From the NCBI GenBank assembly GCA_028279765.1, contig JANQND010000007.1:5851-69850 (forward strand): a stretch of 64,000 bases of DNA. Direction: 5' to 3'. Position 1 is the stretch's first letter. Each line of letters begins with the position of its first letter. The notes under the pieces are model-generated. The model had not been told where the DNA came from, ran no database searches, and worked only from the letters and a program-made list of their open reading frames with translations. A program made the position numbers and the translations under genes. Origin of the DNA: Candidatus Nanoarchaeia archaeon. GTDB lineage: Archaea; Nanobdellota; Nanobdellia; Woesearchaeales; WJIZ01. This document shows positions 28,790 to 63,711 of the stretch, piece by piece.

Positions 28790-28827
28790 GGAACTGTAGT
28801 TCAATATATACTTTTATAGTCATTAGT

Positions 28828-28839: not shown

Positions 28840-28861
28840 GTAGTAGGAGTAGAACGAAAGC

Positions 28862-33412: not shown

Positions 33413-33536
33413 GAATCCGGGTAAAAGAAACTAATCTCCCTACCAGTATACATAAACGTAACATTTAAATAGGAGTACTCCCAAAACCTCCTCTATAAAG
33501 TATATTCACTACAATAGATAAGAGGTGTAATAAAAG

Positions 33537-41002: not shown

Positions 41003-41122
41003 GGGGGCGTAGTATAATCTGGCTAGTACAGCCGGCTCCAGATGTTGGAGCGTTGAGGCAAGAGCCGATGATAAGCACGCAGGCAAAACCGGCCGATCGG
41101 GGTTCAAATCCCTGCGTCCCCA
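41003..41122 (+). tRNA. tRNA-Trp (CCA) with a 46-nt intron at the canonical 37/38 position
   Basis: Acceptor stem GGGGGCG/CGTCCCC, D-arm GTAT..GTAC, anticodon stem GCCGG/CCGGC with loop CTCCAG/A, and T-arm CGGGG-TTCAAAT-CCCTG. Intron spans 41042-41087. No encoded CCA. Confidence 0.85.
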
Positions 41123-48600: not shown

Positions 48601-49125
48601 ATCGGAAGGATCAACACAGCCAGGGTCATCAAGGTCAACGAGTCCATCGTTATCGTTATCCTCACGGTCATTACATTGAGTAAAGCAGCCAGCTGACTTT
48701 ATTCGCAGGGAGTTATATTCGTGAGCGATTCTGTTTTTAGGGAAGCGTAGGAAGCCATCCTCAGTGATGGTTTCCTTGATAAGTTTATGAGTAAAAGTTA
48801 CTTCTTTTATTTTGTGCTTGCTGGCATTGAGAATAAATACCTTGACCTTCGCAGCTACACCCTTTCCCAGAAACTGATGCTCAATAATATCCCCCGACTT
48901 AACCCGAACATCTACGCTCCGGTCCCAGGCAATATAATCATCGTTGCGCTGAAATTGAGAGTGCAGCACCTGGCCATTCCTGTTCCATACCTTAGCAAGA
49001 TCATCTCCGGATCCTGCAAAGTCCTGTGCGTAGATCTTTCGATCAAAACAGGATTCCGTTGCGCTAACAAAGCTCAAAGAAAACAAGAAGAGTAATGAGA
49101 AAAGAATTTTTTTGATCGTGCTCAT
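45679..49125 (-). CDS. Giant secreted Cys-rich modular protein with Ca-binding-like repeats
   Basis: Signal peptide, DNDNDGLVDLDDPGC and DGEDNDGDGLIDDLDPGC motifs, and alternating Cys-rich module types repeated three to four times. Confidence 0.7.
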   Translation of the reverse strand: MSTIKKILFSLLFLFSLSFVSATESCFDRKIYAQDFAGSGDDLAKVWNRNGQVLHSQFQRNDDYIAWDRSVDVRVKSGDIIEHQFLGKGVAAKVKVFILNASKHKIKEVTFTHKLIKETITEDGFLRFPKNRIAHEYNSLRIKSAGCFTQCNDREDNDNDGLVDLDDPGCVDPSDNTEDEELVECVEGKEKIIDWSDTLYLTSKVKRSEKGKWERSAEFVDLSPAVKVFEPLRNKEYKMQSALHIAEDGLLTFKNKMRDGGLVLLQKPSKEVVVIQGLDSAFYCPGGDDSACIYSREGVLLYNFAVTSHGTRSYDKVLLHSKYVGECDDKHITDIRNGVRQYCGFAETQIEVKKGDTLYFKGEDSNELAGSGIELYEYCDSTPSVKQCNDGEDNDGDGLIDDLDPGCSDPLDDNEGDEQLSASLSCFSEIIEGHEQICSIFVTAGSSQVSDAQVNVYYSNGDFFGSCETDALSGGCDVSRVENSAGSYAVYAQASRVGSIGDLDTVPLFSYGVLEEKYDIINLKLYNDSQFNNEDNLFFRGEKLYVQFEAAKISDGSAANGLISRATLVSPPGGSAALELIDNSAGIYRYQLTPIPATHDFLGTSQVFTFVFNFSDGSGGQEQVDLTILNNPPQIVGRISDQILLEGESKTIDLSAYEYDLEDSDEDLLWGVSGVFPSPVGVSLQDKLLTLKGLSPGSDIMTLSLTDRNGDSDFQQVSVEVAAVACFDNTDCNDNNASTTDSCINAGTANAYCFNTPLINDTILCTADAQCDDGDVFTEDICENPGTVDSQCNNLPIACFVDTECGVDSFTGDTFCKDDNVHQNFVTYSCSEAGSSSASCSDSLTPTMVEPCEYGCANGACNDGPVIECFSDSDCEDGNSLTLDRCENPGATTSHCIHESLSCLSNSDCGADGFVGDSFCQGNDVYQSYESHTCSGSGLSSQCSSTLTPTRTQACPFGCELGSCTDQPAITCYQNEDCGSPTYFGNAFCRSDDLHQQFSFFTCEQAGTPQSHCVEHVDDAIVQSCAHGCSNNQCISTKRKTLLDSDLHISDISLGRVDRFVLDDQLEFGITLRNTGDRDLDDLSVDALIYDLGLYYPLGSFDLDDGDSITLRERFDLPFSAASGWYDVRVVVSNDAIRRVIHREVEIK

Positions 49126-49304: not shown

Positions 49305-52300
49305 GTGGCAGAGCAGGATGACGACGAAATAAGTATAGACTTCTCAAAGATAAAAAATATCTTCAAAAAGAAGGCAGAAAAGGAAAAAGTACAGGTAGTT
49401 GAGCAGAAAGCAGAAGAAATCGAAAGTTACTCTCACAGCGCTAAAGATAAAGAGCGCGTTGAAGGTCTGAAAGATCAACCAAGAAAACAGGAGGATGAAG
49501 AAATCTCATTCGATTTTTCAAAGATAACCGGATTTTTCAAAAAACTGGGAAAGGATTCAGGTAATTCGCATCTGAAAAAAGGGGGGAGAGAAAAACAAAG
49601 CAGCGATGATGAATTCTCATTCGATTTCAGGAAAGCGTGGAGTTTTATCAATAAGCATAAAGTGTTGCTGCTTATACTCATTCCGCTTCTCTTTTCTGTA
49701 TACCTGAGAACTATCCCAGGTCATCTTCCCATTACTGATAATTGGGCAGAGAGTACTCTCCTTAATGGGGCACAGCAGCAAATTGAATCCCAGGTAAGGT
49801 CACAGTATCCCAATCTGCCCGAAGAAAATATCAATAATCTCATTAGTACCCAGATGCAGCAATTACTGAATGCAGAAAGGGGACAATTTGAACAGCAGGT
49901 AAGTTTACTCTCCGAGCAATTTAAGTCCAGGCTCCAAAAAGATGGTCAAACATATCTTATAGCTATCGACCCCTATTTTTGGATGCTGCATGCGCAAAGT
50001 ATACTTGAGAGAGGGTACCCGGGTGATCTGCTGAGAAATCCGCAGACTATGGAGGAATGTAGCAGGATCGCAAAGGACTGTGTTCCCTGGGATCAACACA
50101 TGGAAGCTCCTCTTGGAAGAAAAACCCCATACGACATGTTTCATGCTTATGCAGTTGCATATACACATAAAATTCTAAGCATCTTCAATCCAAAACAGGA
50201 CATTATGAGTTCTGCATTTATTGTACCTATTATTCTTGCATCTCTTTGCGTCATACCTGCGTTTTTCATTGCGCGAAAAGTAGGAGGTAATTTTGCAGGC
50301 TTCGTAGCAGGTTTCTTTGTTGCTATACATCCCGCATTTCTCACAAGAACGGTGGGAGGGTTTTCTGACACTGATGCCTATAATGTGCTTTTCCCCCTGC
50401 TCATTACCTGGCTCTTTCTGGAAGCATATGAGGTCAAGCAAAAATGGAAGAGCATCCTCATTACCTGCAGTGCAGGTTTAGCTATTGGTTTATACAGTGT
50501 TACCTGGGGAGGATGGTGGTACATCTTTGATTTCATCATCGGGTCGCTTGTTATTTATCTTATTATCTACGTGCTCATTCACAGAGATGAAATTAAGGTG
50601 CTGCACAAACAGGAAACAATCAGGAAAAATGCAACCATTGGCATACTCCTTTTCGTATCCACTCTGATTTTTACCAGTATTATTTCGGAATTTTCGACAT
50701 TTATGCAGGCATTCAGGGGGCCCTTGAACTTCATCACATTCAAGGAAGTGGGGATATCAACTATTTGGCCAAATGTTATTACCACAGTTGCTGAGCAGAA
50801 CGCAGCATCTCTAAATAGTGTGATCACTCAAATAGGGACTAATTCGCTTGTAATTTTCATATTATCCATATTCGGAATCACCTTAACCTTATTACAAAGA
50901 AACAGTAGCAGTAAAATCGATTTATACTATACGATTATCTCACTTATTTGGATAAGTATCGTCCTTGCGATTCGACCTGACTTACCGGTAATGATCGCCT
51001 TAATTACGCTTCCACTGATTGCGAAGATTGTATTCGCTATATATTCAAAGGACACAGCAATTGATTTTAAGCTCGCCATCATCCTTATTATCTGGTTCAC
51101 TTCTACCCTGTATGCAAGTACCAAAGGGGTTCGGTTTATGCTATTGCTTGTACCCGCAGCTTCAATAGGTCTAGGCATAGCCCTTGGCCACATAGTGGAG
51201 CAGGTTTCAAGGTTCATGAATAGAAGCCTTGACTTGAATAGGACATTGAGCAAATCAATTATTGTACTTGTACTCCTCTTCGCACTATTTATCAGTCCGT
51301 TCAATACCGCAAGAGCAACGGCATCACAGGAAATACCCAGTATGAATGATGCGTGGTATAGCGCACTTGAGAAGGTTCGTTTAGAATCTGAGCCGGATGC
51401 TATTATTAATTCCTGGTGGGACTTTGGCCATTGGTTCAAAGCTATTGGCAATCGTGCGGTGACATTTGATGGGACATCTCAGAACACTCCCATGGCTCAT
51501 TGGATAGGACATGTGCTCTTGACGAACGATGAAGATAAGGCGGTAGGTCTGCTGCGAATGCTGGACTGTGGGTCCAATTCCGCGTTTGAGAAACTTGATG
51601 CAGCAGTAAACGATGGTGCAAGGTCGGTAAGCATCCTGCATACCATTGCTCCTCTAAACAGAGAAGATGCAAAAAAGGAACTTCTTAAATATACTGACAA
51701 TACTCAGGCAGAAGAAGTGCTCAGGTACAGCCATTGTACTCCCCCCGAAAACTATTTTATTACCTCAGATGATATGATAGGGAAATCGGGTGTGTGGGGT
51801 CATTTTGGGAGCTGGGATTTCGACAGGGCACTCATTTATAATACGCTAAAAAAGAAAGAGTTTGAAAACGATAAAGAAAAAAGCGTTTCATTTCTTAAAG
51901 AGCGCTTTAGTTTTTCTGATGAAGAAGCTGAGGAGTTTTTCTTTGAAGTAAGAAATATTCAGGATAGCAATGAAGCAAACAACTGGATCGCTCCCTGGCC
52001 AGGGTACGCCTCAACGGTTATAGGCTGTCAAAACCGAAACGAGGATATAATCGTATGCCCGGTAAATGGAAGGGGGGGAACCCTGAACATGGAAGTGAAC
52101 CTCAAAGAAAAAACAGCCGCAGCTGAAACACCGGTGGGGGTAAATCATCCGCAGGCAATCGCGTTCATAACAAAAGAAGGCATAGAAAAAACAGAATACA
52201 AGAACAATACCTTTGGAGCTGCAATGACCCTTATTCCACAGGGAGATTCATGGAATTATATTATGTCAGCAAGTCCTCTTGAAGACAGCATGTTTACCCG

Positions 52301-52487
52301 GTTATTTTTTACTGACGGTCATGGGCTTAAAAAATTCAAGAAATTCACTGAAGAGCATTCCGTAGTCGGAAATAGGATAATTGTGTGGAAAGTAGATTGG
52401 GAAGGAAAAGAGGAGAATAAAGTGTTCTTCAATGAAGAAGAACAGGATGCTCAGATAGACCCGGTCCAGGAAGGCCATAGTGCATAA
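49305..52487 (+). CDS. aglB: Archaeal oligosaccharyltransferase (STT3 family)
   Basis: WWDFG motif at 51414-51428, about 13 TM helices, and a large C-terminal soluble domain. GTG start as given in the ORF track. Confidence 0.9.
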   Translation: MAEQDDDEISIDFSKIKNIFKKKAEKEKVQVVEQKAEEIESYSHSAKDKERVEGLKDQPRKQEDEEISFDFSKITGFFKKLGKDSGNSHLKKGGREKQSSDDEFSFDFRKAWSFINKHKVLLLILIPLLFSVYLRTIPGHLPITDNWAESTLLNGAQQQIESQVRSQYPNLPEENINNLISTQMQQLLNAERGQFEQQVSLLSEQFKSRLQKDGQTYLIAIDPYFWMLHAQSILERGYPGDLLRNPQTMEECSRIAKDCVPWDQHMEAPLGRKTPYDMFHAYAVAYTHKILSIFNPKQDIMSSAFIVPIILASLCVIPAFFIARKVGGNFAGFVAGFFVAIHPAFLTRTVGGFSDTDAYNVLFPLLITWLFLEAYEVKQKWKSILITCSAGLAIGLYSVTWGGWWYIFDFIIGSLVIYLIIYVLIHRDEIKVLHKQETIRKNATIGILLFVSTLIFTSIISEFSTFMQAFRGPLNFITFKEVGISTIWPNVITTVAEQNAASLNSVITQIGTNSLVIFILSIFGITLTLLQRNSSSKIDLYYTIISLIWISIVLAIRPDLPVMIALITLPLIAKIVFAIYSKDTAIDFKLAIILIIWFTSTLYASTKGVRFMLLLVPAASIGLGIALGHIVEQVSRFMNRSLDLNRTLSKSIIVLVLLFALFISPFNTARATASQEIPSMNDAWYSALEKVRLESEPDAIINSWWDFGHWFKAIGNRAVTFDGTSQNTPMAHWIGHVLLTNDEDKAVGLLRMLDCGSNSAFEKLDAAVNDGARSVSILHTIAPLNREDAKKELLKYTDNTQAEEVLRYSHCTPPENYFITSDDMIGKSGVWGHFGSWDFDRALIYNTLKKKEFENDKEKSVSFLKERFSFSDEEAEEFFFEVRNIQDSNEANNWIAPWPGYASTVIGCQNRNEDIIVCPVNGRGGTLNMEVNLKEKTAAAETPVGVNHPQAIAFITKEGIEKTEYKNNTFGAAMTLIPQGDSWNYIMSASPLEDSMFTRLFFTDGHGLKKFKKFTEEHSVVGNRIIVWKVDWEGKEENKVFFNEEEQDAQIDPVQEGHSA

Positions 52488-52518
52488 AAATAAGGAAGAA
52501 TACCATTTTTTTCTCAGG

Positions 52519-53178
52519 ATGAGCGCATCAATTTGGGCGGTAATAGCTGCCAAGAACGAAGAAAAAGACATCAGCAGCGTCATCAAAGAAACAAAAAAGT
52601 TTGTTGATGAAGTGATTGTAGTAGATGACGGCTCTTCGGATTCTACCGGTGCTATAGCGAAAAAAGCCGGCGCTACGCTGCTCACCCATGTAGTAAACCT
52701 CGGTAAAGGTGCAGCAACAAATACCGGATGCGAATATGCCATCTCAAAAAATGCAAAGATAATAGTCCTCCTCGATGCGGATGGGCAGCATGAGCCAAAA
52801 GACATACCTAAATTTGTGCAGGCATTACGCGGTAACGATATCGTCTTTGGCATCCGCACAGAGAAAAAAAGTATGCCGCTCATCCTTAAATTCGGGAACA
52901 ATGCCATAAACAGGATTGCATATGTTTTGTTCGGGATCTATATTGCCGATACGCAGTGCGGGTTCCGGGCCTTCAGGGCAGCTACATACAAAAAAATAAG
53001 ATGGAAGAGCAGAAACTACAGCATGGAATCTGAAATGATAGCGCATGTCGGAAAGAAAAGATTAAAATATGCGCAGATTCCCATAAGCACCATATATGCT
53101 GATAAGTATAAAGGAACAACAGTTATTGACGGGATAAAGATTGTCCTCAATATGGTTTGGTGGAAGATTTCCAGGTAA
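52519..53178 (+). CDS. GT2 polyprenyl/dolichyl-phosphate glycosyltransferase
   Basis: Trimmed to MSASIWAVIAAKNEEKDI. VVDDGSSDST and LDADGQH motifs. Confidence 0.85.
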   Translation: MSASIWAVIAAKNEEKDISSVIKETKKFVDEVIVVDDGSSDSTGAIAKKAGATLLTHVVNLGKGAATNTGCEYAISKNAKIIVLLDADGQHEPKDIPKFVQALRGNDIVFGIRTEKKSMPLILKFGNNAINRIAYVLFGIYIADTQCGFRAFRAATYKKIRWKSRNYSMESEMIAHVGKKRLKYAQIPISTIYADKYKGTTVIDGIKIVLNMVWWKISR

Positions 53179-53187
53179 AAGAAAAAA

Positions 53188-53514
53188 ATGGTACTCGGTA
53201 TTCAGATTATTGGACTATGCTTCGGGCTTTTCATGGCCTATTACTCTTTCCTGCATTTCAAGCGAAAAGAGTTTACGCTTAAGGAATTCGGCTTTTGGAT
53301 CGTGCTTTGGATAGCATTCACATACGTCTCCTTGTTTCCTTCCACTTTGGAATTTGTCGTAAAGAGGCTGAATCTGGGAAGAGCCATGGATCTTTTCACA
53401 ATCATTGGCTTCATGGTACTCATTGCTATGTTTTTTTACACGTATAATCTTGTGCGTGAAAACCAGAGAAAGATCGAAAAGATCGTAAGAAAGGTTGCAA
53501 AGAAGAGAAAATAA
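53188..53514 (+). CDS. DUF2304-like small membrane protein
   Basis: Three TM helices. Typical partner downstream of a GT2 gene. Confidence 0.55.
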   Translation: MVLGIQIIGLCFGLFMAYYSFLHFKRKEFTLKEFGFWIVLWIAFTYVSLFPSTLEFVVKRLNLGRAMDLFTIIGFMVLIAMFFYTYNLVRENQRKIEKIVRKVAKKRK

Positions 53515-53599: not shown

Positions 53600-54700
53600 A
53601 TGGTTGAGACCATTAAATTCATTGATAGATATGCAGGGACTCTATTGTGTGCGATGCTTGGCATAGTAAGCAAAAAGAATTCTAAGGCACCTGAAAAGCC
53701 AAAAAGAATAGCAGTCATCCAGCTCTGGGGGGTTGGCGAAACTATCCTGACACTTCCTGCAATTAAAGCATTAAGAAAGAAATATCCTAAAGCAGAAATA
53801 GACATTCTTTGCACTGCAAGAAATAAGGATGTGTACTATGATCAAAAAGTGAGCATCATTGATATTTCACTCAACCCGCTCTCTATCGCATCCCTTATGC
53901 TCAAAAACTACAGGGAATATGACATAGTAATTGATCTCGAGGAGTATCTGAACATTTCTGCTCTGATCGCATTCTTTGTTGGAAAGTTCAGGGTAGGATA
54001 CTCCCATAGTGCAAGGAGCAGGCTCTACCATCAGTCAGTACCCTACAACGATAACCAGCACGTTTCACAGACGTTCATGGATCCTCTACAGGTTTTAGGT
54101 ATCAGGCAGAAGGTAACGCAATTAGAAGATGTCCGGTATCCAAAAGAGAAAGAACAAAAAGTAAAGAAATTGTTACAGGGAATAAATACAAGAAGTCCTA
54201 TGGTAGGAATTTCTGCAGGAGCAGCAGAGTCCGCTAAAAGCAGGATGTGGCCTGAAGAAAAATGGGCGGCACTGATCGACAAAATAAGTGCACACAAAGG
54301 ATCAACCTTCATTCTTCTTGGAGCAGGTGATGTGAAAGAGACGAATAAAAAGATTATAAGCAAAGTAAAGCAGAAAAAAAATACTCATAATTTTGCGGGG
54401 ATAACTGATGTTCCCGAACTCTTTGCACTGTGTAAAAAGCTGGACCTCATGATCTCCATTGATTCAGGGCCCATGCACATTGCAGCTGCACAGAGGATAA
54501 AAACGATTGGACTCTTCTGCCCTAATACTCCGATAAGATTCGGTCCTCTGGGGAAAAACAATGTATCCATATACAAACCAATTCTTAAAAAGCCCTGTAT
54601 CAATGTGCATAAGGGGGAGGTCCCTGAATGCAGGGGCCACAATCACATGAGCAGAATAACAGTTGAGGATGTCTTTAAGGCTGTGAAGAGACTGTTGTAG
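53600..54700 (+). CDS. GT9-family glycosyltransferase (heptosyltransferase-like)
   Basis: RIAVIQLWGVGETILTLPAIKALRKKYPKAEIDIL and DSGPMHIAAA motifs, characteristic of the WaaC/WaaF family. Confidence 0.85.
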   Translation: MVETIKFIDRYAGTLLCAMLGIVSKKNSKAPEKPKRIAVIQLWGVGETILTLPAIKALRKKYPKAEIDILCTARNKDVYYDQKVSIIDISLNPLSIASLMLKNYREYDIVIDLEEYLNISALIAFFVGKFRVGYSHSARSRLYHQSVPYNDNQHVSQTFMDPLQVLGIRQKVTQLEDVRYPKEKEQKVKKLLQGINTRSPMVGISAGAAESAKSRMWPEEKWAALIDKISAHKGSTFILLGAGDVKETNKKIISKVKQKKNTHNFAGITDVPELFALCKKLDLMISIDSGPMHIAAAQRIKTIGLFCPNTPIRFGPLGKNNVSIYKPILKKPCINVHKGEVPECRGHNHMSRITVEDVFKAVKRLL

Positions 54701-54713
54701 TCATGCAATAAGC

Positions 54714-55448
54714 TCACCCAAAATGTTCATACTCGCCATACGTAAAAAACCCAACTAATTGCTTGAGCTTTGCCAGCAGAGGAAATAAGTCCTGCTCCAA
54801 AGATTTACCCTCGATCAATTCAAAGGCTTCTTTCTTAAAAATATAGATTCCTGCATTAACAATATGGGAGCTGAGTGCTGCTTTTTTTTCCTTGAAATCA
54901 ATAATCAAATCCCCATCCAAGATTGCAGTGCCATAATCCGAAGATTTCTCGCGGGTCATAAGGCCCATCGTGACAAGTTTGTCAAGCTGCAGGTGCTTGT
55001 GAACCATTTTAGAAAGATCAAAACGATTAAAAGTATCCGCGGACATGACCAGAAAAGAGCCATTCAGTGTTTCTTTGAGGGACAAGAGGGCCGATGCGTT
55101 GCCCCTCGAATCATTCTCAATGATTTCCACCATGGAATCCTTGAGCTCTTCGCGAAGAGACAGCTTTGCTTTACTGGTAACTAAAAGGACTTTCTTGATG
55201 CCATAGCGTGCTAGAAAATCAATTTGGTTTCGAATGAGTGATTTTCCTTTAAACATCTTCAGGGCAATGTCCTGGTGTGAACCTTTCAGTAACAGGACAG
55301 CAGTAGTAAGAGAGTCCTGTGAGATTCCTTTGCGAAGATAGTATTCAATTCCCTGGCTCCGCGAACGAATAATGGACCCATCGACCTTAGAGTCAATAAG
55401 CTCAAGCAGGGATTGTTCAATAGAAATCGCGATCTTGTTTTTAATCAT
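54714..55448 (-). CDS. Ribbon-helix-helix domain fused to a degenerate sugar nucleotidyltransferase-like domain
   Basis: N-terminus KIAISIEQSLLELID...RSRSQGIEYYLRKG is CopG/NikR-like. The remainder resembles the NTP-transferase fold but lacks the GxGxR loop. Confidence 0.55.
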   Translation of the reverse strand: MIKNKIAISIEQSLLELIDSKVDGSIIRSRSQGIEYYLRKGISQDSLTTAVLLLKGSHQDIALKMFKGKSLIRNQIDFLARYGIKKVLLVTSKAKLSLREELKDSMVEIIENDSRGNASALLSLKETLNGSFLVMSADTFNRFDLSKMVHKHLQLDKLVTMGLMTREKSSDYGTAILDGDLIIDFKEKKAALSSHIVNAGIYIFKKEAFELIEGKSLEQDLFPLLAKLKQLVGFFTYGEYEHFG

Positions 55449-55574
55449 AGTAATACCCAGTAATACTTTAAGTATTTAAATATTACGAACAAAAAAGAGA
55501 AAAAAAGCACAAAATTTAAATAATAAATAAGATATTAGTATGAAAAAGTAATACTTTCGGAGATAGTGATCACC

Positions 55575-56159
55575 ATGCAAAACACAAAACAAATGATGCA
55601 GGAGAGCATCCAGACAAAAGAATCCTTTTTGCAGCAGGAAGAAAACATCAATAAAGCAGCAGAAGCAATAATTGAATGTTTCAAAGAAGGCAACAAAGTG
55701 CTCATCTGTGGCAATGGGGGATCAGCTGCTGATGCGCAACACATAGCTGCAGAATTTGTTGGAAGATACAAGTTAGAAAGAGAAGGGTATCCTGCTATTG
55801 CTTTGACAACGGACTCATCTATACTTACAGCATGGTCAAACGATTACTCTTATGATACCGTTTTCGAGCGCCAGGTGCAGGCCTTAGGGCAGAAAGGAGA
55901 TATTCTTCTGGGAATTTCAACATCAGGGAATTCAGAAAATATAGTGAAGGCGTTTGAGAAGGGAAAAGAAAAGAGCTTAACACTCATTTCACTTACCGGA
56001 AACAAAGGAGGAAAGCTCAAAGGAATGAGCAACATCAATATAGATGTTGATTCAAACAACACACCAAGAATTCAGGAGTGCCATATCTTAGCATATCACA
56101 TCATCTGTGAGATTGTTGAAAGAGAGTTAGTAAAAGAAGAGCAGAATAATGAAAATTAG
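55575..56159 (+). CDS. gmhA: Sedoheptulose-7-phosphate isomerase
   Basis: SIS domain with GNGGSAADAQHIAAEFVGRY and GISTSGNSENI motifs. An alternative start lies at 55566. Confidence 0.85.
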   Translation: MQNTKQMMQESIQTKESFLQQEENINKAAEAIIECFKEGNKVLICGNGGSAADAQHIAAEFVGRYKLEREGYPAIALTTDSSILTAWSNDYSYDTVFERQVQALGQKGDILLGISTSGNSENIVKAFEKGKEKSLTLISLTGNKGGKLKGMSNINIDVDSNNTPRIQECHILAYHIICEIVERELVKEEQNNEN

Positions 56160-57063
56160 TATTATTGGTGCAGGAGCTATCGGAGGTTTGCTTGGAGCAA
56201 AGCTGCAAAAAGCAAATTACGAAGTAACGCTGATAGCAAAAGAAGATCAGGCCAGGGTAATCAGTAACCAAGGCATTATCCTCGAAGGAGAGGGGAAAGA
56301 GACCATCAAAGTCAAAGTTAGGACAGAAGAAGAAACCGGAGACGAAAGAGCAGATCTTGTGATCTTGGCAACAAAAGCATATGACACGCAGAAAGCAGCA
56401 AGCCTTTGCAGGGAACTCGTATCAAATAATGGATTGGTTCTCTCCATTCAAAACGGCCTGGGGAATGAAGAGATTTTAGCAGAGTCAATCGATAAGGAAA
56501 AAATAATTGGAGCGGTTACCCATTGCGGTGCAAGTACCTTAGGGGGAGGGAAAATCAAAGTAAACGGAATCGGCGAAACAATAATCGGGTATTACTATGA
56601 TGAGAATCAGGATAGCAGTAAAATAAAGAAGATTCAGCAGGTGTTATCAGGTTCAGGCTTGCCTTGCAGGGTATCTGAAGACATAAAGCAAGATATATAC
56701 GAGAAGTTCATTATTAATACCGGTATAAACGCGCTCGGGGCTATAGCGCAGGTAAAGAATGGGATGCTCATAAGCAACACCTATTTGCAATCAACGATGG
56801 AAAACATCATCAAAGAAGCTAGGGAAGTAGCAAAAGCAGAAAACATCCCAATCCCTGAAAACATTATCCACAAAACAAGAGAAATTTGTGACAAAACAAA
56901 AAACAATACTAATTCCCTCTATCAGGACGTTCTCAAAAAGAAGAAAACAGAAATCGATTTTTTCAATGGTATGGTCGTTAAGAAAGCAAAAGATCACCAC
57001 ATCTCCGTGCCGTACAATCAAATCATGACAAATTTAATAAAAGCAAAAGAGGACCGATACTAG
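56149..57063 (+). CDS. Ketopantoate reductase (PanE/ApbA) family oxidoreductase
   Basis: MKISIIGAGAIGGLLGAKL Rossmann N-terminus and a family-like C-terminal domain. Confidence 0.75.
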   Translation: MKISIIGAGAIGGLLGAKLQKANYEVTLIAKEDQARVISNQGIILEGEGKETIKVKVRTEEETGDERADLVILATKAYDTQKAASLCRELVSNNGLVLSIQNGLGNEEILAESIDKEKIIGAVTHCGASTLGGGKIKVNGIGETIIGYYYDENQDSSKIKKIQQVLSGSGLPCRVSEDIKQDIYEKFIINTGINALGAIAQVKNGMLISNTYLQSTMENIIKEAREVAKAENIPIPENIIHKTREICDKTKNNTNSLYQDVLKKKKTEIDFFNGMVVKKAKDHHISVPYNQIMTNLIKAKEDRY

Positions 57064-57064
57064 G

Positions 57065-57952
57065 ATGAAATGCATAGTTACCGGAGGAGCAGGATTTATT
57101 GGGTCTAACCTGGCCCTCCATCTGGAAAATGAAGGGCACGAAGTTATTGTGATAGATAACTTTAGTTCAGCAAGCAGAAATAACCTCAAGGGATTCAAGG
57201 GAAGGATTGTAGAGCAAGATGTGTCAGAGCTTTCCGAGTTCAATGAAAAAGTAGAGGTAATTTTTCATCAGGCAGCAATTACTGACCCCAGATACCCCGA
57301 TGACGAAGAAACAATACATCAAAATGTGAAAGGATTCAAAAACATCATTAAGCTGGCAAAAAAAAATAATGCAAGATTAATCTATGCTTCATCTGCAAGC
57401 ATGTATGGTAATGGGCCTTCTCCTCAAAAAGAGAATCAGGAAAAAGACATTCTTAGTGCGTATGCGAAATCAAAGCTGATGATGGATGAAATTACCGAGA
57501 GGGAAATGAGCGCGATGCACATAGTAGGCCTAAGATACTTCAATGTTTTCGGTCCTCATGAAGCCCACAAAGGAAGGCCCGCATCTATGATCTATCATCT
57601 TGCGAAGCAGATTAAAGCGGGGAAAAACCCAAAAATCTTCAGGATGGGTGAGCAAAGGCGCGATCATATCCATGTGAAAGACTGTGTTGAAGCAAACATA
57701 AAGGCACTGAGCGGAAGACCAGGAATCTATAATATAGGAACAGGAGTAGCAACTAGCTTCAACCAGGTAGTCCAATACATCAATGAAGGGCTGGGGACAA
57801 ATCTGGAGCCGGAATATATAGACAATCCATATGAAGGAACCTATCAAAATCATACTCAGGCAGATATTACCAAAGCAAAGCAAGGATTGGATTTTAGCTC
57901 GCAATACCCGATAAAGGATGCAATTGCTGAATATGTAAAGAAAATAGAGTAA
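57065..57952 (+). CDS. hldD: NAD-dependent epimerase, probable ADP-L-glycero-D-manno-heptose 6-epimerase
   Basis: IVTGGAGFIGSNL and YASSASMYG motifs. The specific assignment rests on its position within the heptose gene cluster. Confidence 0.7.
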   Translation: MKCIVTGGAGFIGSNLALHLENEGHEVIVIDNFSSASRNNLKGFKGRIVEQDVSELSEFNEKVEVIFHQAAITDPRYPDDEETIHQNVKGFKNIIKLAKKNNARLIYASSASMYGNGPSPQKENQEKDILSAYAKSKLMMDEITEREMSAMHIVGLRYFNVFGPHEAHKGRPASMIYHLAKQIKAGKNPKIFRMGEQRRDHIHVKDCVEANIKALSGRPGIYNIGTGVATSFNQVVQYINEGLGTNLEPEYIDNPYEGTYQNHTQADITKAKQGLDFSSQYPIKDAIAEYVKKIE

Positions 57953-57956
57953 TACC

Positions 57957-58940
57957 ATGAAAGAAATTAATCCAACTGATCTGAAAAAGATCACAAAAAA
58001 ATTTCAAAGCAAAAGAATAGTAGTCCTGGGAGATCTTATGCTCGACAAATATATTTTTGGAGAAGTAAGAAGGATATCTCCGGAAGCGCCCATTCCAATT
58101 GTTAAAGTCCAAAAAGAGCGGTTTGTTCCGGGAGGAGCAGCCAATGCTGCTAATAATATTTCATCGCTAAGTGCAAACGTGTATCTCTTTGGTGTTCTGG
58201 GCAATGATCTGGCAAAAGATATCCTTATTGATGTAGCAAAAACACATTCTATTAACACAGAAGGAGTGATCATTGACGGAAAAAAACAAACCATCCAGAA
58301 AATCAGGGTGCTCGGGCAAAACCAGCAGCTTCTTCGTGTTGATTATGAAGATCAGGAATATTTAGGGTCTGATGAGCATAGCACCATACTGGAAAGGTTG
58401 CGGGGAATGGGACAGATTGACAGCATCATTGTCTCAGATTATGCTAAAGGAACCATTACCAAAAAGTTGATGGGAGAGTTAACTACGTTTGCAAAAGAAA
58501 ACAATATCCTGCTTATCATCGACCCTAAGCCCAAGCACAAGAAGTATTACAAAGGAGTATCGCTGATCACCCCAAACAAAAAAGAAGCAGAGGAACTCAC
58601 AGGAATGGAGTTAAAAACTACTGAAGATATTGAAAAAGCAGGACTTCAACTCATTAAAGAGCTGGAATGCAGCGTTCTTATTACAACCGGGAATAAAGGA
58701 ATGTCTCTGTTTGAAAAAAACAAGAATCCTGTTCATATTCCGACAGTCGCACGGGAAGTGTTCGACGTATCCGGAGCAGGTGATACTGTCATTGCTACCC
58801 TGAGTCTTGCATTATCCAGTGGTGCAAGTCTGCATGAGGCAGCGGTGCTTGCAAATTATGCTGCAGGAGTGAAGGTAGGAAAAGTAGGAACCGCACCGGT
58901 ATCTCTCTCTGAACTTGAACAAAGCCTGCAGTCAAAATGA
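57957..58940 (+). CDS. hldA: D-glycero-beta-D-manno-heptose-7-phosphate kinase (RfaE domain I type)
   Basis: RIVVLGDLMLDKYIFGEVRRISPEAPIPIV and DVSGAGDTVIA motifs. Confidence 0.85.
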   Translation: MKEINPTDLKKITKKFQSKRIVVLGDLMLDKYIFGEVRRISPEAPIPIVKVQKERFVPGGAANAANNISSLSANVYLFGVLGNDLAKDILIDVAKTHSINTEGVIIDGKKQTIQKIRVLGQNQQLLRVDYEDQEYLGSDEHSTILERLRGMGQIDSIIVSDYAKGTITKKLMGELTTFAKENNILLIIDPKPKHKKYYKGVSLITPNKKEAEELTGMELKTTEDIEKAGLQLIKELECSVLITTGNKGMSLFEKNKNPVHIPTVAREVFDVSGAGDTVIATLSLALSSGASLHEAAVLANYAAGVKVGKVGTAPVSLSELEQSLQSK

Positions 58941-59950
58941 ACAGCAAAGCTATTTTTCTGGATAGGGATGGTACACTGGTAAAAGATCATGGGTATGTGC
59001 ACAAGAGGGAAGATTTTGCGTTGCTGAACAACGTTATAGAGGGACTGCAGCTTCTTCATGAATACAGGCTTTTCATTGTAACGAACCAATCAGGCATTAG
59101 CAGGGGGAAATTCACTCAGAAAGACATGCAGGAATTTAACGATCATCTTGTGGAGGAGTTAAAGGAGCACCACATACATATAGAAGAAGTCTACTTTTGT
59201 CCTCATTCTCCTCAGGAAGGTTGTCAGTGCAGAAAACCAAGCACAGGGATGATCAGGCAGGCATCAGAGAAATTCGATATTGATCTGAAAAACTCGTATG
59301 TTATAGGGGACCACGCTACTGATATAGAATTAGCAAAAAATGCAGGATGTCATGGGATTCTCGTGCTTACAGGACAGGGCAGCAGGTATATTGAACAGGC
59401 AAAAAATAAGAGCCCCTATTACATTGCTGCAGATGTAGAGCAGGCAGCGAGGATCATATCATTCAGCCAGGGTCAAAAAATCATAACAAGAGAAACTCTC
59501 TCACAAACAGTCGAAAATATCAGAAAGCAGAACAAAACCATAGTCACTCTAAACGGAACCTTCGATATTCTTCATGAAGGGCATGCAAAAATACTCAAAG
59601 AGTCAAAAGTTCAGGGAGACGTGCTCATAGTAGGGGTAAACGCTGACTCCTCAGTAAAAGAAAATAAAGGAGAGTCACGCCCGTTCAATAATGAGCAGCA
59701 AAGGGCAAAAATGCTCGCTACCTTCAAAGAAGTGGACTATGTGGTCGTATTCAAAGAGAAAACACCTATTCCACTCTTAGAGATCATCAAGCCAAACGTG
59801 CATGTCAACGGGTCAGAATACAGTGAAGACTGTATTGAGGCACCAACCGTGACAAAGAACGGGGGGAGAATTCATGTCGTAGAACTTCTACAAGGATTCT
59901 CTACCACGAATCTCGTTGAACGAGGAAGGAAAGAGATTTCTAACCAATAA
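58937..59950 (+). CDS. Fusion of heptose-1,7-bisphosphate phosphatase (GmhB-like) and heptose-1-phosphate adenylyltransferase (RfaE domain II type)
   Basis: N-terminal half: AIFLDRDGTL and CPHSPQEGCQCRKP. C-terminal half: LNGTFDILHEGHAKIL and VGVNADSSV. Confidence 0.85.
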   Translation: MNSKAIFLDRDGTLVKDHGYVHKREDFALLNNVIEGLQLLHEYRLFIVTNQSGISRGKFTQKDMQEFNDHLVEELKEHHIHIEEVYFCPHSPQEGCQCRKPSTGMIRQASEKFDIDLKNSYVIGDHATDIELAKNAGCHGILVLTGQGSRYIEQAKNKSPYYIAADVEQAARIISFSQGQKIITRETLSQTVENIRKQNKTIVTLNGTFDILHEGHAKILKESKVQGDVLIVGVNADSSVKENKGESRPFNNEQQRAKMLATFKEVDYVVVFKEKTPIPLLEIIKPNVHVNGSEYSEDCIEAPTVTKNGGRIHVVELLQGFSTTNLVERGRKEISNQ

Positions 59951-59984: not shown

Positions 59985-61100
59985 TTACACTTCCTTCGCA
60001 CAAAACTCCTTGATGCAAGAAACAACCTCTTTAATCTGCTCTTCGGTTATTTCCGGGAACAGGGGAAGGGAAAGAATCGTATCAGCATATGCTTCTGTTA
60101 TCGGAAAGCTACCTTTATGGTAATCAAGGTCAACATATGCTTCCTGCAAATGAATAGGAACCGGATAATGGATTCCTGCATAGACTTCTTTTTCATGCAA
60201 GTAAGTAAGCAGCTTATCCCGCTCAGGGTGACGGATAACATACAAATGGAATACGTGCTCAGCACCCTCCCTAGTATGAGGGGTTTCAATCTGAGGAATA
60301 TCAGAAAGCAGTTCAGTATACAATGCTGCTGCCTTCCTTCGTGACTCATTCCAGTCAGCCAAATGATCTAGTTTCACATTCAGAATAGCTGCCTGCAAAG
60401 CATCGAGGCGATTATTCATGCCCTTAGAAGAATGATAATACTTCTTTTTCTGCCCGTATTCTCTGAGCATGCGAAGCTTTTCTGCAATGTGCTCATCATT
60501 AGTCGTGATAGCCCCTCCGTCTCCGTATCCTCCGAGGTTCTTTCCGGGGTAGAAGCTAAAGCAGCCAATATCTCCAAAGCTTCCTGCAGAAATTCCGTCA
60601 AGAGAAGCCCCGTGAGCCTGGCAGGCATCCTCAATAATGTATAGTCCGTGCTCAGTAGCAATTTCCTTGATTTCTTTCATGCGTGCTGGTTGTCCATACA
60701 GGTGAACAGGGATGATTGCCTTTGTTTTGTCTGTTATGGCCTTTTTTATTCCTTCTACATCTATAGTATAATCTTCTTTGTCACAGTCAACAAGCACCGG
60801 TGTTGCACCGACATAAGAAATCGCAAGTGACGTTGCTATAAAAGTATTGGCTACCGTAATTACTTCGTCTCCCGGGCCAATCTCCAGAACGCGCAAGGCA
60901 AGCTGCAGGGCATCTGTTCCTGAACTAACCCCTATGCAGTGCTTGGATTGAGTAAACTCAGCAAATTTCTTCTCAAAAAGAGAAACTTCATCACCCAGAA
61001 TAAACGCAGTATTTTCCATAACACTCTGCATACGCTGATTGATATCCTCTTTCAGGTTTTGATACTGTGTTTTCAGATCGACAAATGGGATAGACATCAT
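59985..61100 (-). CDS. DegT/DnrJ/EryC1/StrS-family sugar aminotransferase
   Basis: IPFVDLKTQY N-terminus and a FSFYPGKNLG Lys motif region. Confidence 0.9.
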   Translation of the reverse strand: MMSIPFVDLKTQYQNLKEDINQRMQSVMENTAFILGDEVSLFEKKFAEFTQSKHCIGVSSGTDALQLALRVLEIGPGDEVITVANTFIATSLAISYVGATPVLVDCDKEDYTIDVEGIKKAITDKTKAIIPVHLYGQPARMKEIKEIATEHGLYIIEDACQAHGASLDGISAGSFGDIGCFSFYPGKNLGGYGDGGAITTNDEHIAEKLRMLREYGQKKKYYHSSKGMNNRLDALQAAILNVKLDHLADWNESRRKAAALYTELLSDIPQIETPHTREGAEHVFHLYVIRHPERDKLLTYLHEKEVYAGIHYPVPIHLQEAYVDLDYHKGSFPITEAYADTILSLPLFPEITEEQIKEVVSCIKEFCAKEV

Positions 61101-61134
61101 TTCACCTTTTCAATTCAATAAATTTCAATAATCA

Positions 61135-62001
61135 TCATCTGTTTTTATTCTTTTCTACTTCTTTCATGAGCAGAGTTCCGGAATTCATCGTAACAATGAA
61201 GCCGCTCTTCGTTTTCTCAAGAGAACCATTTTTCCCCTGGCCTGCAACAAGGGAAACAGAACAAATCTCTACTTCTTTTCCTTCATATTCAATAACCGGA
61301 AATTGGAAAGGTGGAAAAATAAGCGCATTTGCTCTGCGAAGAACTGATTGAGCATCGCTGCTCAAATCTAATTTCTTGTTCTTAAAATCAAAGGAATGGA
61401 TAGGATAATAGCTCGATTCGGCATCATTTTGTTTTATCCGGTTATTAGTACCCTCAAGAATAAGGCCAAGCTCACTCATGAAGAGCTTATGCCCCTGCTC
61501 TGTGCATTCGTCAAAGAGCTCGCGAGCGGTTTTATCCTGCGCAGAAAAAGCCCGCTGAGCAATGAGATCACCAGTATCAACTCCCTCATCAATATAGTGC
61601 AAAGTAACCCCTATTTCTTTTTCGCCGTTTTGTACTGCCCAGGCAATAGGATAGCAGCCACGATAGCGAGGCAGTTTTGCAAAGTGCAGATTAATCACTC
61701 CCATTTTTGGGATTTCAATAAGTTCTTTCTTAAGAATTCTTCTGCACTGCATTGAAAAAATAATATCAATATCTTTCCTGCGCAGCTCAGATAAAAATTC
61801 AGGGTCAGAGAGGTTTTTCTGCTCAATGAGGGGGAGGCCAAGCTCCTTTGTTTTTTTCTTCAAAGACAACTGCCAGGTATCCTGGCTGGTGTCAGAGGGT
61901 TCAGGAACAACTCCTACAATCGCTACATCCTGTTTCGAAAGATATTCCAGGCAATAACAGGCAATAGTGTTATTTCCTATAACAAGGACACGCTTTTTCA
62001 T
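61135..62001 (-). CDS. Formyltransferase (sugar N-formyltransferase/Fmt-like)
   Basis: INLHFAKLPRYRGCYPIAWAV...GVTLHYIDEGVDTGDLI catalytic segment. Confidence 0.85.
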   Translation of the reverse strand: MKKRVLVIGNNTIACYCLEYLSKQDVAIVGVVPEPSDTSQDTWQLSLKKKTKELGLPLIEQKNLSDPEFLSELRRKDIDIIFSMQCRRILKKELIEIPKMGVINLHFAKLPRYRGCYPIAWAVQNGEKEIGVTLHYIDEGVDTGDLIAQRAFSAQDKTARELFDECTEQGHKLFMSELGLILEGTNNRIKQNDAESSYYPIHSFDFKNKKLDLSSDAQSVLRRANALIFPPFQFPVIEYEGKEVEICSVSLVAGQGKNGSLEKTKSGFIVTMNSGTLLMKEVEKNKNR

Positions 62002-62002
62002 A

Positions 62003-62716
62003 TTATTTTCGAATCCCTAAAAGGCAGTAGATCATCGGCTTAGAGATACTCCACCATCCCTTAAACGGGGCCATCTTCGAATAGCTTTTTCCCTCGGGCC
62101 AGTATTTTGGAACGCCTACTTCTTTTACTTTGTAGCCCCTGCGAATAACCTCAAGCAGAAAATAGGGCTCCATCTCATATTCGTTAAGCCATTTCTTATG
62201 AAGATTAATTTTTTTGAGAAGGTGTGGCTTAAACGCACGAAAGCCGTTGCTTGCATCGGTAATCCATTTCCCGGCAGGTATGGAAAAAAAAACAGAAAAC
62301 AGCCGGGTAGTCACGTGACGAAATTTAGGCAGGTCTAGTTTTTTCTCATAAAGGTAGCGGGAGCCTTGAATATAATCATATCCGTCGTTAAGAATAGGTT
62401 CGATCGCCCGCTTAATAAACGCAGGGTCATCCTGATCATCACCGGCAAGCTCGGCAATGATGTCATATCCTTTCTCAAGGCCATAATAATATCCAGTGCG
62501 GTATGCAGCACCTGCGCCCATATTTTTCTCATGGCTAAGAACAGTCGCACCTGCAGCCTTAGCTTCCTTCACGGTGTTATCTGAGCTGCAGTCGTTCACG
62601 ACAACAACCTCATCAACAAACGGGGCTCGCTTCTTTGTTTTTGTAACGACGTTGCCTATCTTCCCTTCCTCGTTGTATGCTGCTGCGACAACAATTACTT
62701 TCTTTTCATCAATCAA
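62003..62716 (-). CDS. GT2 polyprenyl-phosphate glycosyltransferase (ArnC/DPM1-like)
   Basis: VVVAAAYNEEGKI, VVNDCSSDNT and AGDDQDDP motifs. Confidence 0.85.
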   Translation of the reverse strand: MIDEKKVIVVAAAYNEEGKIGNVVTKTKKRAPFVDEVVVVNDCSSDNTVKEAKAAGATVLSHEKNMGAGAAYRTGYYYGLEKGYDIIAELAGDDQDDPAFIKRAIEPILNDGYDYIQGSRYLYEKKLDLPKFRHVTTRLFSVFFSIPAGKWITDASNGFRAFKPHLLKKINLHKKWLNEYEMEPYFLLEVIRRGYKVKEVGVPKYWPEGKSYSKMAPFKGWWSISKPMIYCLLGIRK

Positions 62717-63711
62717 GAGAAATCAACCTGTATTGTTTTTTTTTCTTTGAGAGAAGTATGGCATGCCTCAACAATTTTAATAACATCAATAGCATTCTGG
62801 GCATCACTAATAGGTTTTTTACTCTTTTCCACGCATTCCAGGAAATGATGGATTTCTTCCTTGAGAGGTTCTTTGTTATGAATAAAAGGACTATAGTCAT
62901 CTCCCTCTTGTTTTACAAGGCTGAATTCGCCAAAAGAATCATATTGAGGAACAATTCCTTTATTATAGATAGTCAGCTCCTGGGTCATATAATCCATGCT
63001 TGCACTCTTCTCTTCGCCAATGATCCAAAGTTCCCTCACCTTTTTGGGAGTAAGCCAGCTTACCCCAACGTTCGCTTTGATATTTTTTGAGAAGCTCAGG
63101 GTAATAAAACCAACATCTTCGAATTGGTTCTTATTATAGAAACTGCCGGTGCAGGTTACTTCTGTTGGCAACTCATTGAGAAGATAGCAAAACGTATCTA
63201 TGTCATGCACCGCAAAGTCATAGATAACCCCGCAGTCCTGCCTAGGAGTCATGAGTCCCATTCGGGAACCATACATAAATCGTATTTTTCCGAAAGTTCC
63301 TTTCTTGATTTCTTCTTTAAGCTTATGCACACCTGGATGATAACGGAAGATGTGGCCCACCATAAGAACCAGGTTCTTCTGGCCTGCAAGGTTCTGTAAT
63401 TCAATTGCCTGTTCCGAGTCCGTGGTCATTGGTTTCTCAACGAGAACGTGCTTGCCTGAAAGAAGAGCTTCCTTTATTATGGAGTAATGCTGCGAAGAAG
63501 GAACGCAGATAGAAACGGCATCTATCGAAGAGTCCTGCAGTATTTCTGTATGATCCTGTGTAGTGGGAATCTTAAAGGTATTGTGAAGATATTCTAAATT
63601 AGTACCTTTAGCATCACATATTTTCACCAAGTCCGCACTGCCTGATTCCGTAAGTACACGTACATGATTTTTCCCCCATGTGCCCGTACCAATAACCGCT
63701 ATTTTTAACAT
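62713..63711 (-). CDS. Gfo/Idh/MocA-family oxidoreductase (sugar-nucleotide dehydrogenase-like)
   Basis: MLKIAVIGTGTWGKNH N-terminus and an EKPM segment. Confidence 0.85.
   Translation of the reverse strand: MLKIAVIGTGTWGKNHVRVLTESGSADLVKICDAKGTNLEYLHNTFKIPTTQDHTEILQDSSIDAVSICVPSSQHYSIIKEALLSGKHVLVEKPMTTDSEQAIELQNLAGQKNLVLMVGHIFRYHPGVHKLKEEIKKGTFGKIRFMYGSRMGLMTPRQDCGVIYDFAVHDIDTFCYLLNELPTEVTCTGSFYNKNQFEDVGFITLSFSKNIKANVGVSWLTPKKVRELWIIGEEKSASMDYMTQELTIYNKGIVPQYDSFGEFSLVKQEGDDYSPFIHNKEPLKEEIHHFLECVEKSKKPISDAQNAIDVIKIVEACHTSLKEKKTIQVDFS

Follow-up and report, generated by a model that had tools for sequence, protein, structure and literature searches.

The 64-kb stretch of DNA analysed here (the window) encodes all five enzymatic steps of ADP-heptose synthesis in a plus-strand cluster (55566-59950) that lies downstream of genes for the oligosaccharyltransferase AglB and a GT9 glycosyltransferase, and is read divergently from a minus-strand gene (54714-55448) whose product joins a ribbon-helix-helix (RHH)-like N-terminus to a degenerate sugar-1-phosphate nucleotidyltransferase fold. 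By comparing the window with 91 fetched related loci (labelled L plus a number), we find that this arrangement recurs in Woesearchaeal genomes, and we propose that the region is probably the sugar-supply arm of a conserved cell-surface glycosylation island of Woesearchaeota, a DPANN lineage. Delivery of heptose into AglB-dependent glycans is plausible and, on the gene order, slightly favoured in our judgement, while the minus-strand gene probably encodes a local repressor of the heptose operon that acts as a sugar sensor. The two together, namely that heptose would be a standard AglB-delivered part of Woesearchaeal glycoproteins and that RHH proteins with a dead nucleotidyltransferase would form a new class of regulators repressing via GTATGAA-N3-TTCATAC, make a more tentative proposal, which we regard as possible and somewhat doubtful as a whole.

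A complete ADP-heptose gene set

The open reading frame map has every gene of the original prediction where it had been placed, on the plus strand: gmhA, for sedoheptulose-7-phosphate isomerase (55566..56159 from a GTG at 55566, or from an ATG at 55575); panE, for a member of the PanE/ApbA ketopantoate-reductase family (56149..57063); hldD, for ADP-glycero-manno-heptose 6-epimerase (57065..57952); a gene for a pfkB-type heptose-7-phosphate kinase of the HldA/HldE type (57957..58940); and a gene for a GmhB-HldC fusion of 7-phosphatase and adenylyltransferase (58937..59950). gmhA and panE overlap by 11 nt, panE and hldD are 1 nt apart, hldD and the kinase gene 4 nt apart, and the kinase and fusion genes overlap by 4 nt; neighbouring genes throughout the cluster overlap or sit 1-9 nt apart, an operon-like layout.

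As the yardstick for enzyme assignment we used the NCBIfam equivalog cut-offs curated by NCBI, with a Pfam scan for families. GmhA scores 234.6 bits against TIGR00441 (cut-off 209.45) and, among solved structures, matches Burkholderia pseudomallei GmhA (2XBL, 3.9e-55), with which its metal-binding and catalytic His, Glu, Gln and His align and the AQHIAAEF and IQECH..H stretches are kept. The kinase likewise exceeds its cut-off (TIGR02198, 380.5 bits against 345), matches Burkholderia HldA (4E84, 1.2e-57) and keeps the GAGD motif as DVSGAGDT. HldD passes more narrowly (TIGR02197, 276.5 bits against 274.6), with matches to HldD of Helicobacter pylori (3SXP, 5.6e-57) and Escherichia coli (1EQ2, 1.5e-39) and with both the GxxGxxG (GGAGFIGS) and YxxxK (YAKSK) motifs present. 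In the fusion protein, residues 1 to ~175 correspond to GmhB and ~185 to 337 to HldC (RfaE domain II). The first half matches E. coli GmhB (3L8E, 3e-31) and carries DRDGT (DxDGT), TNQSG, CPH...CQCRKP (CxH..CxC-RKP) and GDxxxD (GD..D); the second matches Burkholderia HldC (5X9Q, 1.2e-26) and carries FDILHEGH (HxGH) and GFSTT (xSTT). The claim that all five heptose steps are encoded is thus upheld for every enzyme by hidden Markov model (HMM), structural-homology and motif checks, with the two fusion halves just under their cut-offs, and we assign the pathway activities with high, though sequence-based, confidence from equivalog-level HMM scores, homologues of solved structure and intact catalytic motifs.

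Since the kinase is of the pfkB type, not a GHMP-type HddA, and HldD is present as well, the genes point to the beta-anomer, ADP-L-glycero-D-manno route. GmhA would convert sedoheptulose-7-phosphate to D-glycero-D-manno-heptose-7-phosphate, the kinase would yield the beta-1,7-bisphosphate, the GmhB half of the fusion would leave the beta-1-phosphate, the HldC half would then form ADP-D,D-heptose, and HldD would epimerise this to ADP-L,D-heptose. As regards the nucleotide used by HldC, two commentaries describe a rule from Tang et al., not absolute, by which heptose nucleotidyltransferases that are promiscuous for the nucleotide are recognised by Arg as fifth residue of (F/L)xxGxSTT (the STTR5 rule; PMC11573728, PMC11461863). 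The corresponding motif of the HldC half, LLQGFSTT, is without this Arg, and an ATP-preferring enzyme is the simplest prediction under the rule.

The same GmhB-HldC fusion occurs in Micrarchaeota, a Methanosarcinales metagenome-assembled genome (MAG), a Saccharibacteria MAG and a few other bacteria (L009, L022, L026, L037, L041), and in the Woesearchaeal loci L089-L091 phosphatase and adenylyltransferase are separate genes. Other variants affect the isomerase and epimerase. In the heptose operons of four relatives, a small cupin of 120-128 amino acids with weak similarity to mannose-6-phosphate isomerase or lyxose isomerase occupies the position of the SIS-type GmhA (L007:7759-8121, L006:7764-8129, L010:7535-7921, L091:9320-9700) and may be a non-orthologous sedoheptulose-7-phosphate isomerase. 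In two relatives the HldD position is held by a GSU2086-family protein (L089:8394-9290 and L090:7679-8590, both minus strand; NF052581, ~420 bits), which may be an alternative epimerase or an ADP-heptose modifier; this family has a distant deoxyhypusine-synthase-like NAD fold.

Conserved linkage to AglB

The original prediction had placed the cluster downstream of an oligosaccharyltransferase gene and a GT2 gene, and this is what the map has. The STT3-type oligosaccharyltransferase AglB (49305..52487, plus strand; 1060 amino acids) matches PF02516 with 138.7 bits and contains the WWDFG motif; its stop is overlapped by 8 nt by the start of the gene for a GT2 polyprenyl/dolichyl-phosphate sugar synthase of PpgS/AglJ-like type (52480..53178, plus; PF00535, 84 bits), which is followed by genes for a DUF2304 small membrane protein (53188..53514, plus; PF10066, 68.3 bits) and the GT9 protein (53600..54700, plus). 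These four genes form a second co-directional unit, an apparent operon, upstream of the heptose cluster, with the minus-strand gene between the two units. The best NCBIfam matches of the GT2 protein, PpgS (127.9 bits) and AglJ (97 bits), are both below their cut-offs. A DUF2304 small membrane protein is the usual partner of PpgS-type GT2 enzymes. The window thus resembles mycobacterial PpgS with its DUF2304-type partner, and haloarchaeal AglJ, in having a GT2 gene followed by a DUF2304 gene, and differs from them in that its GT2 protein lies far below the equivalog cut-offs.

The full order, [FAD-dependent reductase]-AglB-GT2-DUF2304-GT9, then variable genes, then the RHH/nucleotidyltransferase-like gene facing away from the heptose operon, is found in L007/L008, L089, L090 and L091. 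AglB orthologues hold the same place in L007, L089, L090 and L091, DUF2304 follows GT2 there too, and the GT2 protein is 57-69% identical to its syntenic orthologues. All five relatives' loci in which both blocks were recovered keep the order AglB-GT2-DUF2304-GT9 ... heptose genes. Within the heptose operons of relatives, the order, divergent from the RHH/nucleotidyltransferase-like gene, is isomerase-epimerase-kinase-phosphatase-adenylyltransferase; L006 and L010 likewise have this heptose half together with the divergent gene. The chief reason to think that AglB and GT9 act jointly with heptose synthesis is that the order recurs across genomes whose proteins are only ~50-70% identical. The link between the heptose cluster and AglB that had been proposed from the window's gene order is accordingly reinforced, and the conserved synteny supports, short of proof, a role in glycoprotein synthesis. 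In the mechanism we envisage, an oligosaccharide linked to dolichol phosphate would receive heptose from the GT9 enzyme while still facing the cytoplasm, a dolichol-phosphate sugar for a step after flipping would come from the GT2/DUF2304 pair, and AglB would later move the oligosaccharide to Asn sequons of surface proteins.

To assess possible acceptors, we counted N-X-S/T sequons against composition-matched shuffles. The protein encoded at 36616-39345, which has an N-terminal hydrophobic segment, carries 55 sequons where 23 are expected (z 7.4), and enrichment is seen as well in two open reading frames ahead of the type IV pilus-like genes (24075-27839, 32 against 18 expected; 27800-28789, 12 against 5). 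Sequon-rich surface proteins had been predicted nearby as acceptors, and these three agree with that; the 1148-amino-acid surface protein next to AglB does not, with 5 sequons against 9 expected and so no enrichment.

AglB itself has an N-terminal extension of ~120 amino acids (49305-49680), predicted to be cytoplasmic, ahead of its first membrane helix. The extension contains three acidic/amphipathic DDE-x-SFDFSK repeats: DDDEISIDFSKIKNIFKKK, EDEEISFDFSKITGFFKKL and SDDEFSFDFRKAWSFINKH.

A distinct GT9 subfamily

The product of 53600..54700, here a putative ADP-heptose-dependent heptosyltransferase, had been described as GT9 and heptosyltransferase-like. Its family is borne out, its fold is WaaC/WaaF-like, and it belongs to none of the lipopolysaccharide (LPS) heptosyltransferase I, II or III equivalogs. 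It matches PF01075 with 118.9 bits (cut-off 22), and an AlphaFold (AF2) model built from 28 homologues has a mean predicted local distance difference test score (pLDDT) of 89.6 and a predicted template-modelling score (pTM) of 0.89. Foldseek places this model closest to 3TOV, a GT9 protein (template-modelling score, TM, 0.79), and to WaaF and WaaC (1PSW, 2H1H), with TibC lower. With the LPS heptosyltransferases and 3TOV it shares the GT-B fold (TM 0.65-0.79), the K/R-x-W-P motif and the DSGxMH donor-site motif (here DSGPMH). In the alignment, Glu47 of GVGET stands opposite the G-D motif Asp of 3TOV (LGDV) and WaaF (VGDM), which we take to be the equivalent of the catalytic base Asp13 of WaaC; both Glu47 and Asp288, the latter in DSGPMH, are invariant in the 28 Woesearchaeal homologues. 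Unlike WaaC, WaaF and 3TOV, the window's enzyme thus has an invariant Glu for the catalytic Asp, together with a Cys/His-rich C-terminal segment and an extra N-terminal helix (residues 2-23) that is conserved in the subfamily and without counterpart in the bacterial enzymes; unlike that of WaaC and WaaF, its acceptor cannot be Kdo2-lipid A. By its profile match, model and conserved residues this is a genuine GT9 enzyme of a distinct archaeal (Woesearchaeal) subfamily. We infer ADP-heptose as its donor from one thing, the conserved linkage to the heptose operon, and consider the proposed transfer of heptose onto a dolichol-phosphate-linked oligosaccharide marginally the better bet.

Most Woesearchaeal GT9 homologues have a C-terminal CxxC...C...C cluster, a possible metal site. 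The window's protein has two Cys and His residues at ~330-352 (54590-54660) instead, where the model's confidence is lowest.

A putative repressor and operator

The original prediction had passed over the 244-codon minus-strand gene at 54714..55448, inside its own interval, and the candidate operator that goes with it. The N-terminus of the product, KIAISIEQSLLELID...RSRSQGIEYYLRKG, matches RHH_1 below threshold; in the model an extended segment leads into two helices, 12-21 and 30-40. The remainder has a sugar-1-phosphate nucleotidyltransferase fold (PF00483, 69.2 bits, with the match beginning at profile position 27); Foldseek returns GMPPA/GMPPB and VTC1 at E ~1e-13, eIF2B subunits also resemble the fold, and the family profile matches GDP-mannose pyrophosphorylases (~1e-15) and the GDP-heptose enzyme HddC (1.4e-12). 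All nucleotidyltransferase matches begin after the position of the NTP-binding loop GGxGTRLxPLT, which is absent: the window's clade has LLLKG(S/E)HQ and a 9-residue deletion there in 27 of 27 aligned members. The sugar-binding motifs GD..D, EKPK and NAGIY are retained. Woesearchaeal homologues number >120 clusters at 59-71% identity, and a full-library profile search finds the RHH-plus-nucleotidyltransferase architecture in >150 clusters at 50% identity. Some of the distant members, P0448 (ILAGGVGTRLQPITFEIPKP) for instance, still have the canonical loop.

The gene is divergent from the heptose operon in all seven loci that have it. In the window, the 117-bp divergent intergenic region holds an imperfect palindrome, O1 (GTATGAAAAAGTAATAC, 55538..55554), 16 nt downstream of the TATA box TTTAAATA (55515-55522) and just upstream of the gmhA start, which we regard as a candidate operator. 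The pattern GTAT[GT]A-N3-6-T[AC]ATAC has exactly one match in the 64 kb, with 0.1 expected. A palindrome of the O1 type (GTATGAA-N3-TNATAC) lies between TATA box and start codon in seven of seven loci with the RHH/nucleotidyltransferase-like gene; it occurs once per locus and at the same relative place in L006, L007, L010, L089, L090 and L091, often as the perfect GTATGAA-N3-TTCATAC. It was not found in L004, a Woesearchaeal heptose locus without the RHH gene, or in the Micrarchaeota loci. A second candidate operator, O2 (55450..55466), consists of two half-sites, GTAATAC-CCA-GTAATAC, adjoins the regulator start codon and lies between it and the TATA box TATTTAAATA (55473-55482). Four of the window's 32 half-sites fall within the 105 bp of O1-O2, and analogous GTATGAA-N3-xxAxTAC sites stand at the O2 position in L006, L089, L091 and L010. 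Allowing up to two mismatches, a search of the window for further copies, for example upstream of AglB or GT9, returns the heptose-promoter site only, and so gives no sign of a wider regulon.

Taken together, these features suggest that the RHH-nucleotidyltransferase-like protein is, with fair probability, a local repressor of the heptose operon. An RHH dimer would bind the O1 palindrome over the predicted transcription start and repress the operon, binding at the second site would bring its own promoter under autoregulation, and the degenerate domain, of a kind that binds manno-sugar nucleotides, would adjust expression of the operon to the level of a heptose phosphate or nucleotide that it senses.

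In the wider RHH-nucleotidyltransferase family (P0448, P0472, P0505 and others) the nucleotidyltransferase is apparently intact. Such proteins are possibly trigger enzymes in the manner of PutA, and the degenerate clade of Woesearchaeota seems to descend from them.

Counter-evidence and alternative explanations

A number of observations weigh against the account given above. Where the original prediction turned on the HMM subfamilies of kinase and adenylyltransferase, the kinase falls within the heptose equivalog and the adenylyltransferase does not quite, the HldC half scoring 163.4 bits against a TIGR02199 cut-off of 181.5 with its motifs kept; the GmhB half is just below both the beta-specific NF006506 (175.6 against 178) and TIGR00213 (142.2 against 149.6). 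Nor is the pathway uniform in the clade, HldD being replaced in two relatives and GmhA in four. The GT9 protein falls below every LPS heptosyltransferase equivalog (II, 98.3 bits against 134.6; III, 92.7 against 170.2; I, 82.2 against 185.3), its Glu at the catalytic-base position retains the carboxylate but is a different residue, and its donor specificity is not readable from sequence. Adjacency to AglB does not in itself place the heptose in an N-glycan rather than in another glycoconjugate. As to the regulator, the RHH_1 match is sub-threshold in Pfam (E 0.002; 18.4 bits against a cut-off of 20.5), the N-terminus is modelled with moderate confidence (pLDDT 62-69), and the half-site arrangement of O2 in the window and L007 differs from that in the other loci. 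Finally, the reading for this organism rests on sequence, a DNA metagenome being its only source.

It is conceivable that the pathway is real and its heptose goes elsewhere, into a membrane glycolipid or lipoglycan, an O-linked or directly heptosylated (TibC/AAH-like) protein, or an extracellular polysaccharide for host attachment. Indeed, GT9 enzymes classically use lipid-anchored, non-protein acceptors, TibC-type protein heptosyltransferases are among the fold matches, the surface protein nearest AglB is not sequon-rich, and in L004 and L006 the cluster is surrounded by GT4, Wzx-like and polysaccharide genes, with no AglB next to it. We consider this rather unlikely given that AglB-GT2-DUF2304-GT9 is an apparent operon whose order is kept in five further relatives' loci, that the fold similarity to TibC is much weaker than that to WaaC, WaaF and 3TOV, and that a heptose-containing archaeal N-glycan is already known (PMC11407970). 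A second alternative concerns 54714-55448, which could encode an active second nucleotidyltransferase or PutA-like bifunctional enzyme, making for example GDP-heptose or GDP-mannose, with another factor binding the palindrome. Its NTP_transferase score is above the Pfam cut-off, its sugar-binding motifs are intact, distant RHH-fused members keep the full catalytic loop, and its nearest solved relatives are GDP-mannose and GDP-heptose pyrophosphorylases; set against the deletion of the catalytic loop throughout the aligned clade, the absence of a GHMP-type HddA kinase to provide alpha-heptose-1-phosphate, and an N-terminal RHH, divergent orientation and strict co-occurrence of gene and palindrome that suit a local transcription factor, this makes an active enzyme unlikely, and we retain a putative repressor as the preferred assignment.

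The embedded panE gene invites a further alternative, in which PanE is functional in the pathway and forms a modified heptose by reducing an intermediate that is a keto-heptose or a keto-acid. Its apparent translational coupling to both neighbours, through the 11-nt overlap with gmhA and the 1-nt gap to hldD, would fit such a role, which is nevertheless improbable: tblastn finds no PanE match in any of the 91 related loci, seven Woesearchaeal heptose operons among them, and a metagenome scan yielded no close relative. We therefore dropped PanE as a conserved pathway member. The protein is a full-length member of its family (TIGR00745, 272.3 bits against a cut-off of 141.35), is most similar among solved structures to the characterised Thermococcus kodakarensis ketopantoate reductase over its full length (5AYV, 7.9e-46), and keeps the residues that align with the substrate-binding region of that enzyme. 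That PanE had no obvious role in the pathway, as first supposed, agrees with these results; it looks like an ordinary archaeal enzyme, and panE is most likely a lineage-specific insertion of an unrelated ketopantoate reductase gene into the operon. The last alternative starts from a pathway typical of bacteria: the heptose genes would have come recently from a bacterium, or would be part of a bacterial segment that was mis-binned or chimeric, and would be uninformative on archaea. When the 150-amino-acid HldC domain is placed in a crude neighbour-joining tree, made without support values, the window falls in a Woesearchaeal clade next to Chlamydiota, and a second Woesearchaeal group, Micrarchaeota, Methanocaldococcus and Methanosarcinales are scattered among bacteria, leaving archaea polyphyletic. 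Against recent arrival, GC content is flat at 0.40-0.42 across the cluster and its flanks; for each gene, Woesearchaeal homologue clusters at 45-71% identity number in the tens to hundreds, with bacteria at <=50%; and the flanks are archaeal, with AglB, genes for type IV pilins that bear class III signal peptides of archaeal type, and a tRNA with an intron. For these three reasons we ruled out recent horizontal transfer or contamination, whose likelihood we put close to nil. The tree is most simply read as showing several old transfers between the domains, with long residence since then, and not recent acquisition.

Relation to known systems

The novelty implied by the original prediction has to be scaled down: ADP-heptose clusters in archaeal glycosylation regions, and a heptose N-glycan, are already published (PMC3750248, PMC12667266, PMC11407970, PMC11573728). 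An archaeal ADP-heptose cluster has been reported for Iplasma (PMC3750248), Methanococcus maripaludis KA1 and JJ have ADP-heptose clusters within glycan regions (PMC12667266), and the N-glycan of Thermoplasma acidophilum includes a heptose (PMC11407970); furthermore, according to a commentary on Tang et al. (2024), archaeal enzymes form ADP-heptose in vitro and its purpose is called elusive (PMC11573728). Our core finding, an archaeal ADP-heptose cluster, is thus already described in kind. In the literature searched, we found nothing relevant linking heptose with Woesearchaeota or DPANN archaea. New, as far as we searched, are the clade-wide AglB-GT9-heptose synteny, the Glu-type GT9 subfamily, the GmhB-HldC fusion, and the RHH-pseudoenzyme with its conserved operator, of which the regulator hypothesis is the most original element.

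The bacterial ADP-heptose pathway (cited in PMC12667266) has the same five reactions and enzyme families as the window, and the best structural matches are bacterial; the window's host differs in being a DPANN archaeon without LPS. Whereas bacterial HldE is a kinase-adenylyltransferase fusion, the window's fusion joins phosphatase to adenylyltransferase, an arrangement that is not among the three architectures given in the commentaries on Tang et al. (PMC11573728, PMC11461863). The reported archaeal clusters (Iplasma, Methanococcus and those of Tang et al.) are likewise complete pathways in a glycan-biosynthesis region for which a role in S-layer or N-glycans has been proposed; unlike them, the window's cluster belongs to Woesearchaeota and has conserved adjacency to AglB and GT9 and an RHH regulator-like gene. 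Parallels for the regulator come from other quarters. PutA and NikR join an N-terminal RHH to an enzyme or a ligand- or metabolite-binding domain, as the window's protein appears to do; a gene adjoining the operon under its presumed control and a palindromic site are further shared points. The pyrophosphorylase paralogue GMPPA acts as a sensor. It is inactive, has been solved with GDP-mannose bound (PDB 7D72), and shares with the window's protein a degenerate nucleotidyltransferase-like active site. Unlike PutA, NikR and GMPPA, the window's protein would combine RHH with a sugar-1-phosphate nucleotidyltransferase fold, and we found no description of such a regulator in the searchable literature.

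If the proposal is right, it would give archaeal ADP-heptose a first physiological role, and a worked example of an enzyme decayed into a sensor. The gene order offers a testable answer to why archaea make ADP-heptose, namely to heptosylate lipid-linked N-glycans for the surface proteins of ultra-small, host-dependent archaea. Because the operator is easy to synthesise, it and the putative RHH-pseudoenzyme repressor could be used together in vitro as a simple means of studying how metabolites control transcription in DPANN archaea that are uncultivated. The ADP-heptose pathway is a drug target in bacteria. The variants described here, with a cupin for GmhA, a GSU2086-family protein for HldD and a phosphatase-adenylyltransferase fusion, point to non-orthologous replacements.

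The organism and neighbouring genes

In protein searches, the nearest homologues of the fusion protein, the GT9 protein and the minus-strand gene product all come from Woesearchaeota/Nanoarchaeota MAGs (50-60%, 45-56% and 59-71% identity, respectively), each having >100 homologue clusters at 90% identity, and on this basis the organism is a Woesearchaeote (DPANN). A scan of GTDB genomes for close relatives returned distant bacterial matches only, and looking up the exact sequence of the fusion protein gave no record, so that the organism itself is absent from those collections; the window sequence is held by a single public run, a coral metagenome (DNA). Rfam reports a tRNA of 120 nt at 41003-41122 (plus strand; 46.6 bits), a length that implies an intron; ARAGORN missed it and reported no tRNA in the window. 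An archaeal host is consistent with this tRNA, with the type IV pilin-like proteins, which are archaeal, and with a locus for a pilus ATPase and platform.

That type IV pilus-like locus (24075-34037, plus) encodes a T2SSE ATPase, two T2SSF platform proteins and pilin-like proteins carrying the class III signal 'QAAMEF...YGWA'. Very large sequon-rich proteins precede the pilus-like genes, one of them with a VWA domain. The 1148-amino-acid protein beside AglB (45679-49125, minus) is secreted, contains 4.5% Cys and has no Pfam match; C-x-D-x-x-D-C...F-x-G-D-x-F-C modules repeat along it, with calcium-binding-like DNDGDGL-x-D-x-x-DPGC motifs. On the far side of the heptose genes, a convergent minus-strand cluster (59985-63711) encodes a DegT-type aminotransferase, a formyltransferase, an AglJ/PpgS-like GT2 protein and an oxidoreductase resembling archaeal UDP-GlcNAc 3-dehydrogenase. 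With all NCBIfam scores below the equivalog cut-offs, this content suggests that a 3-formamido sugar may be made and put on dolichol phosphate.

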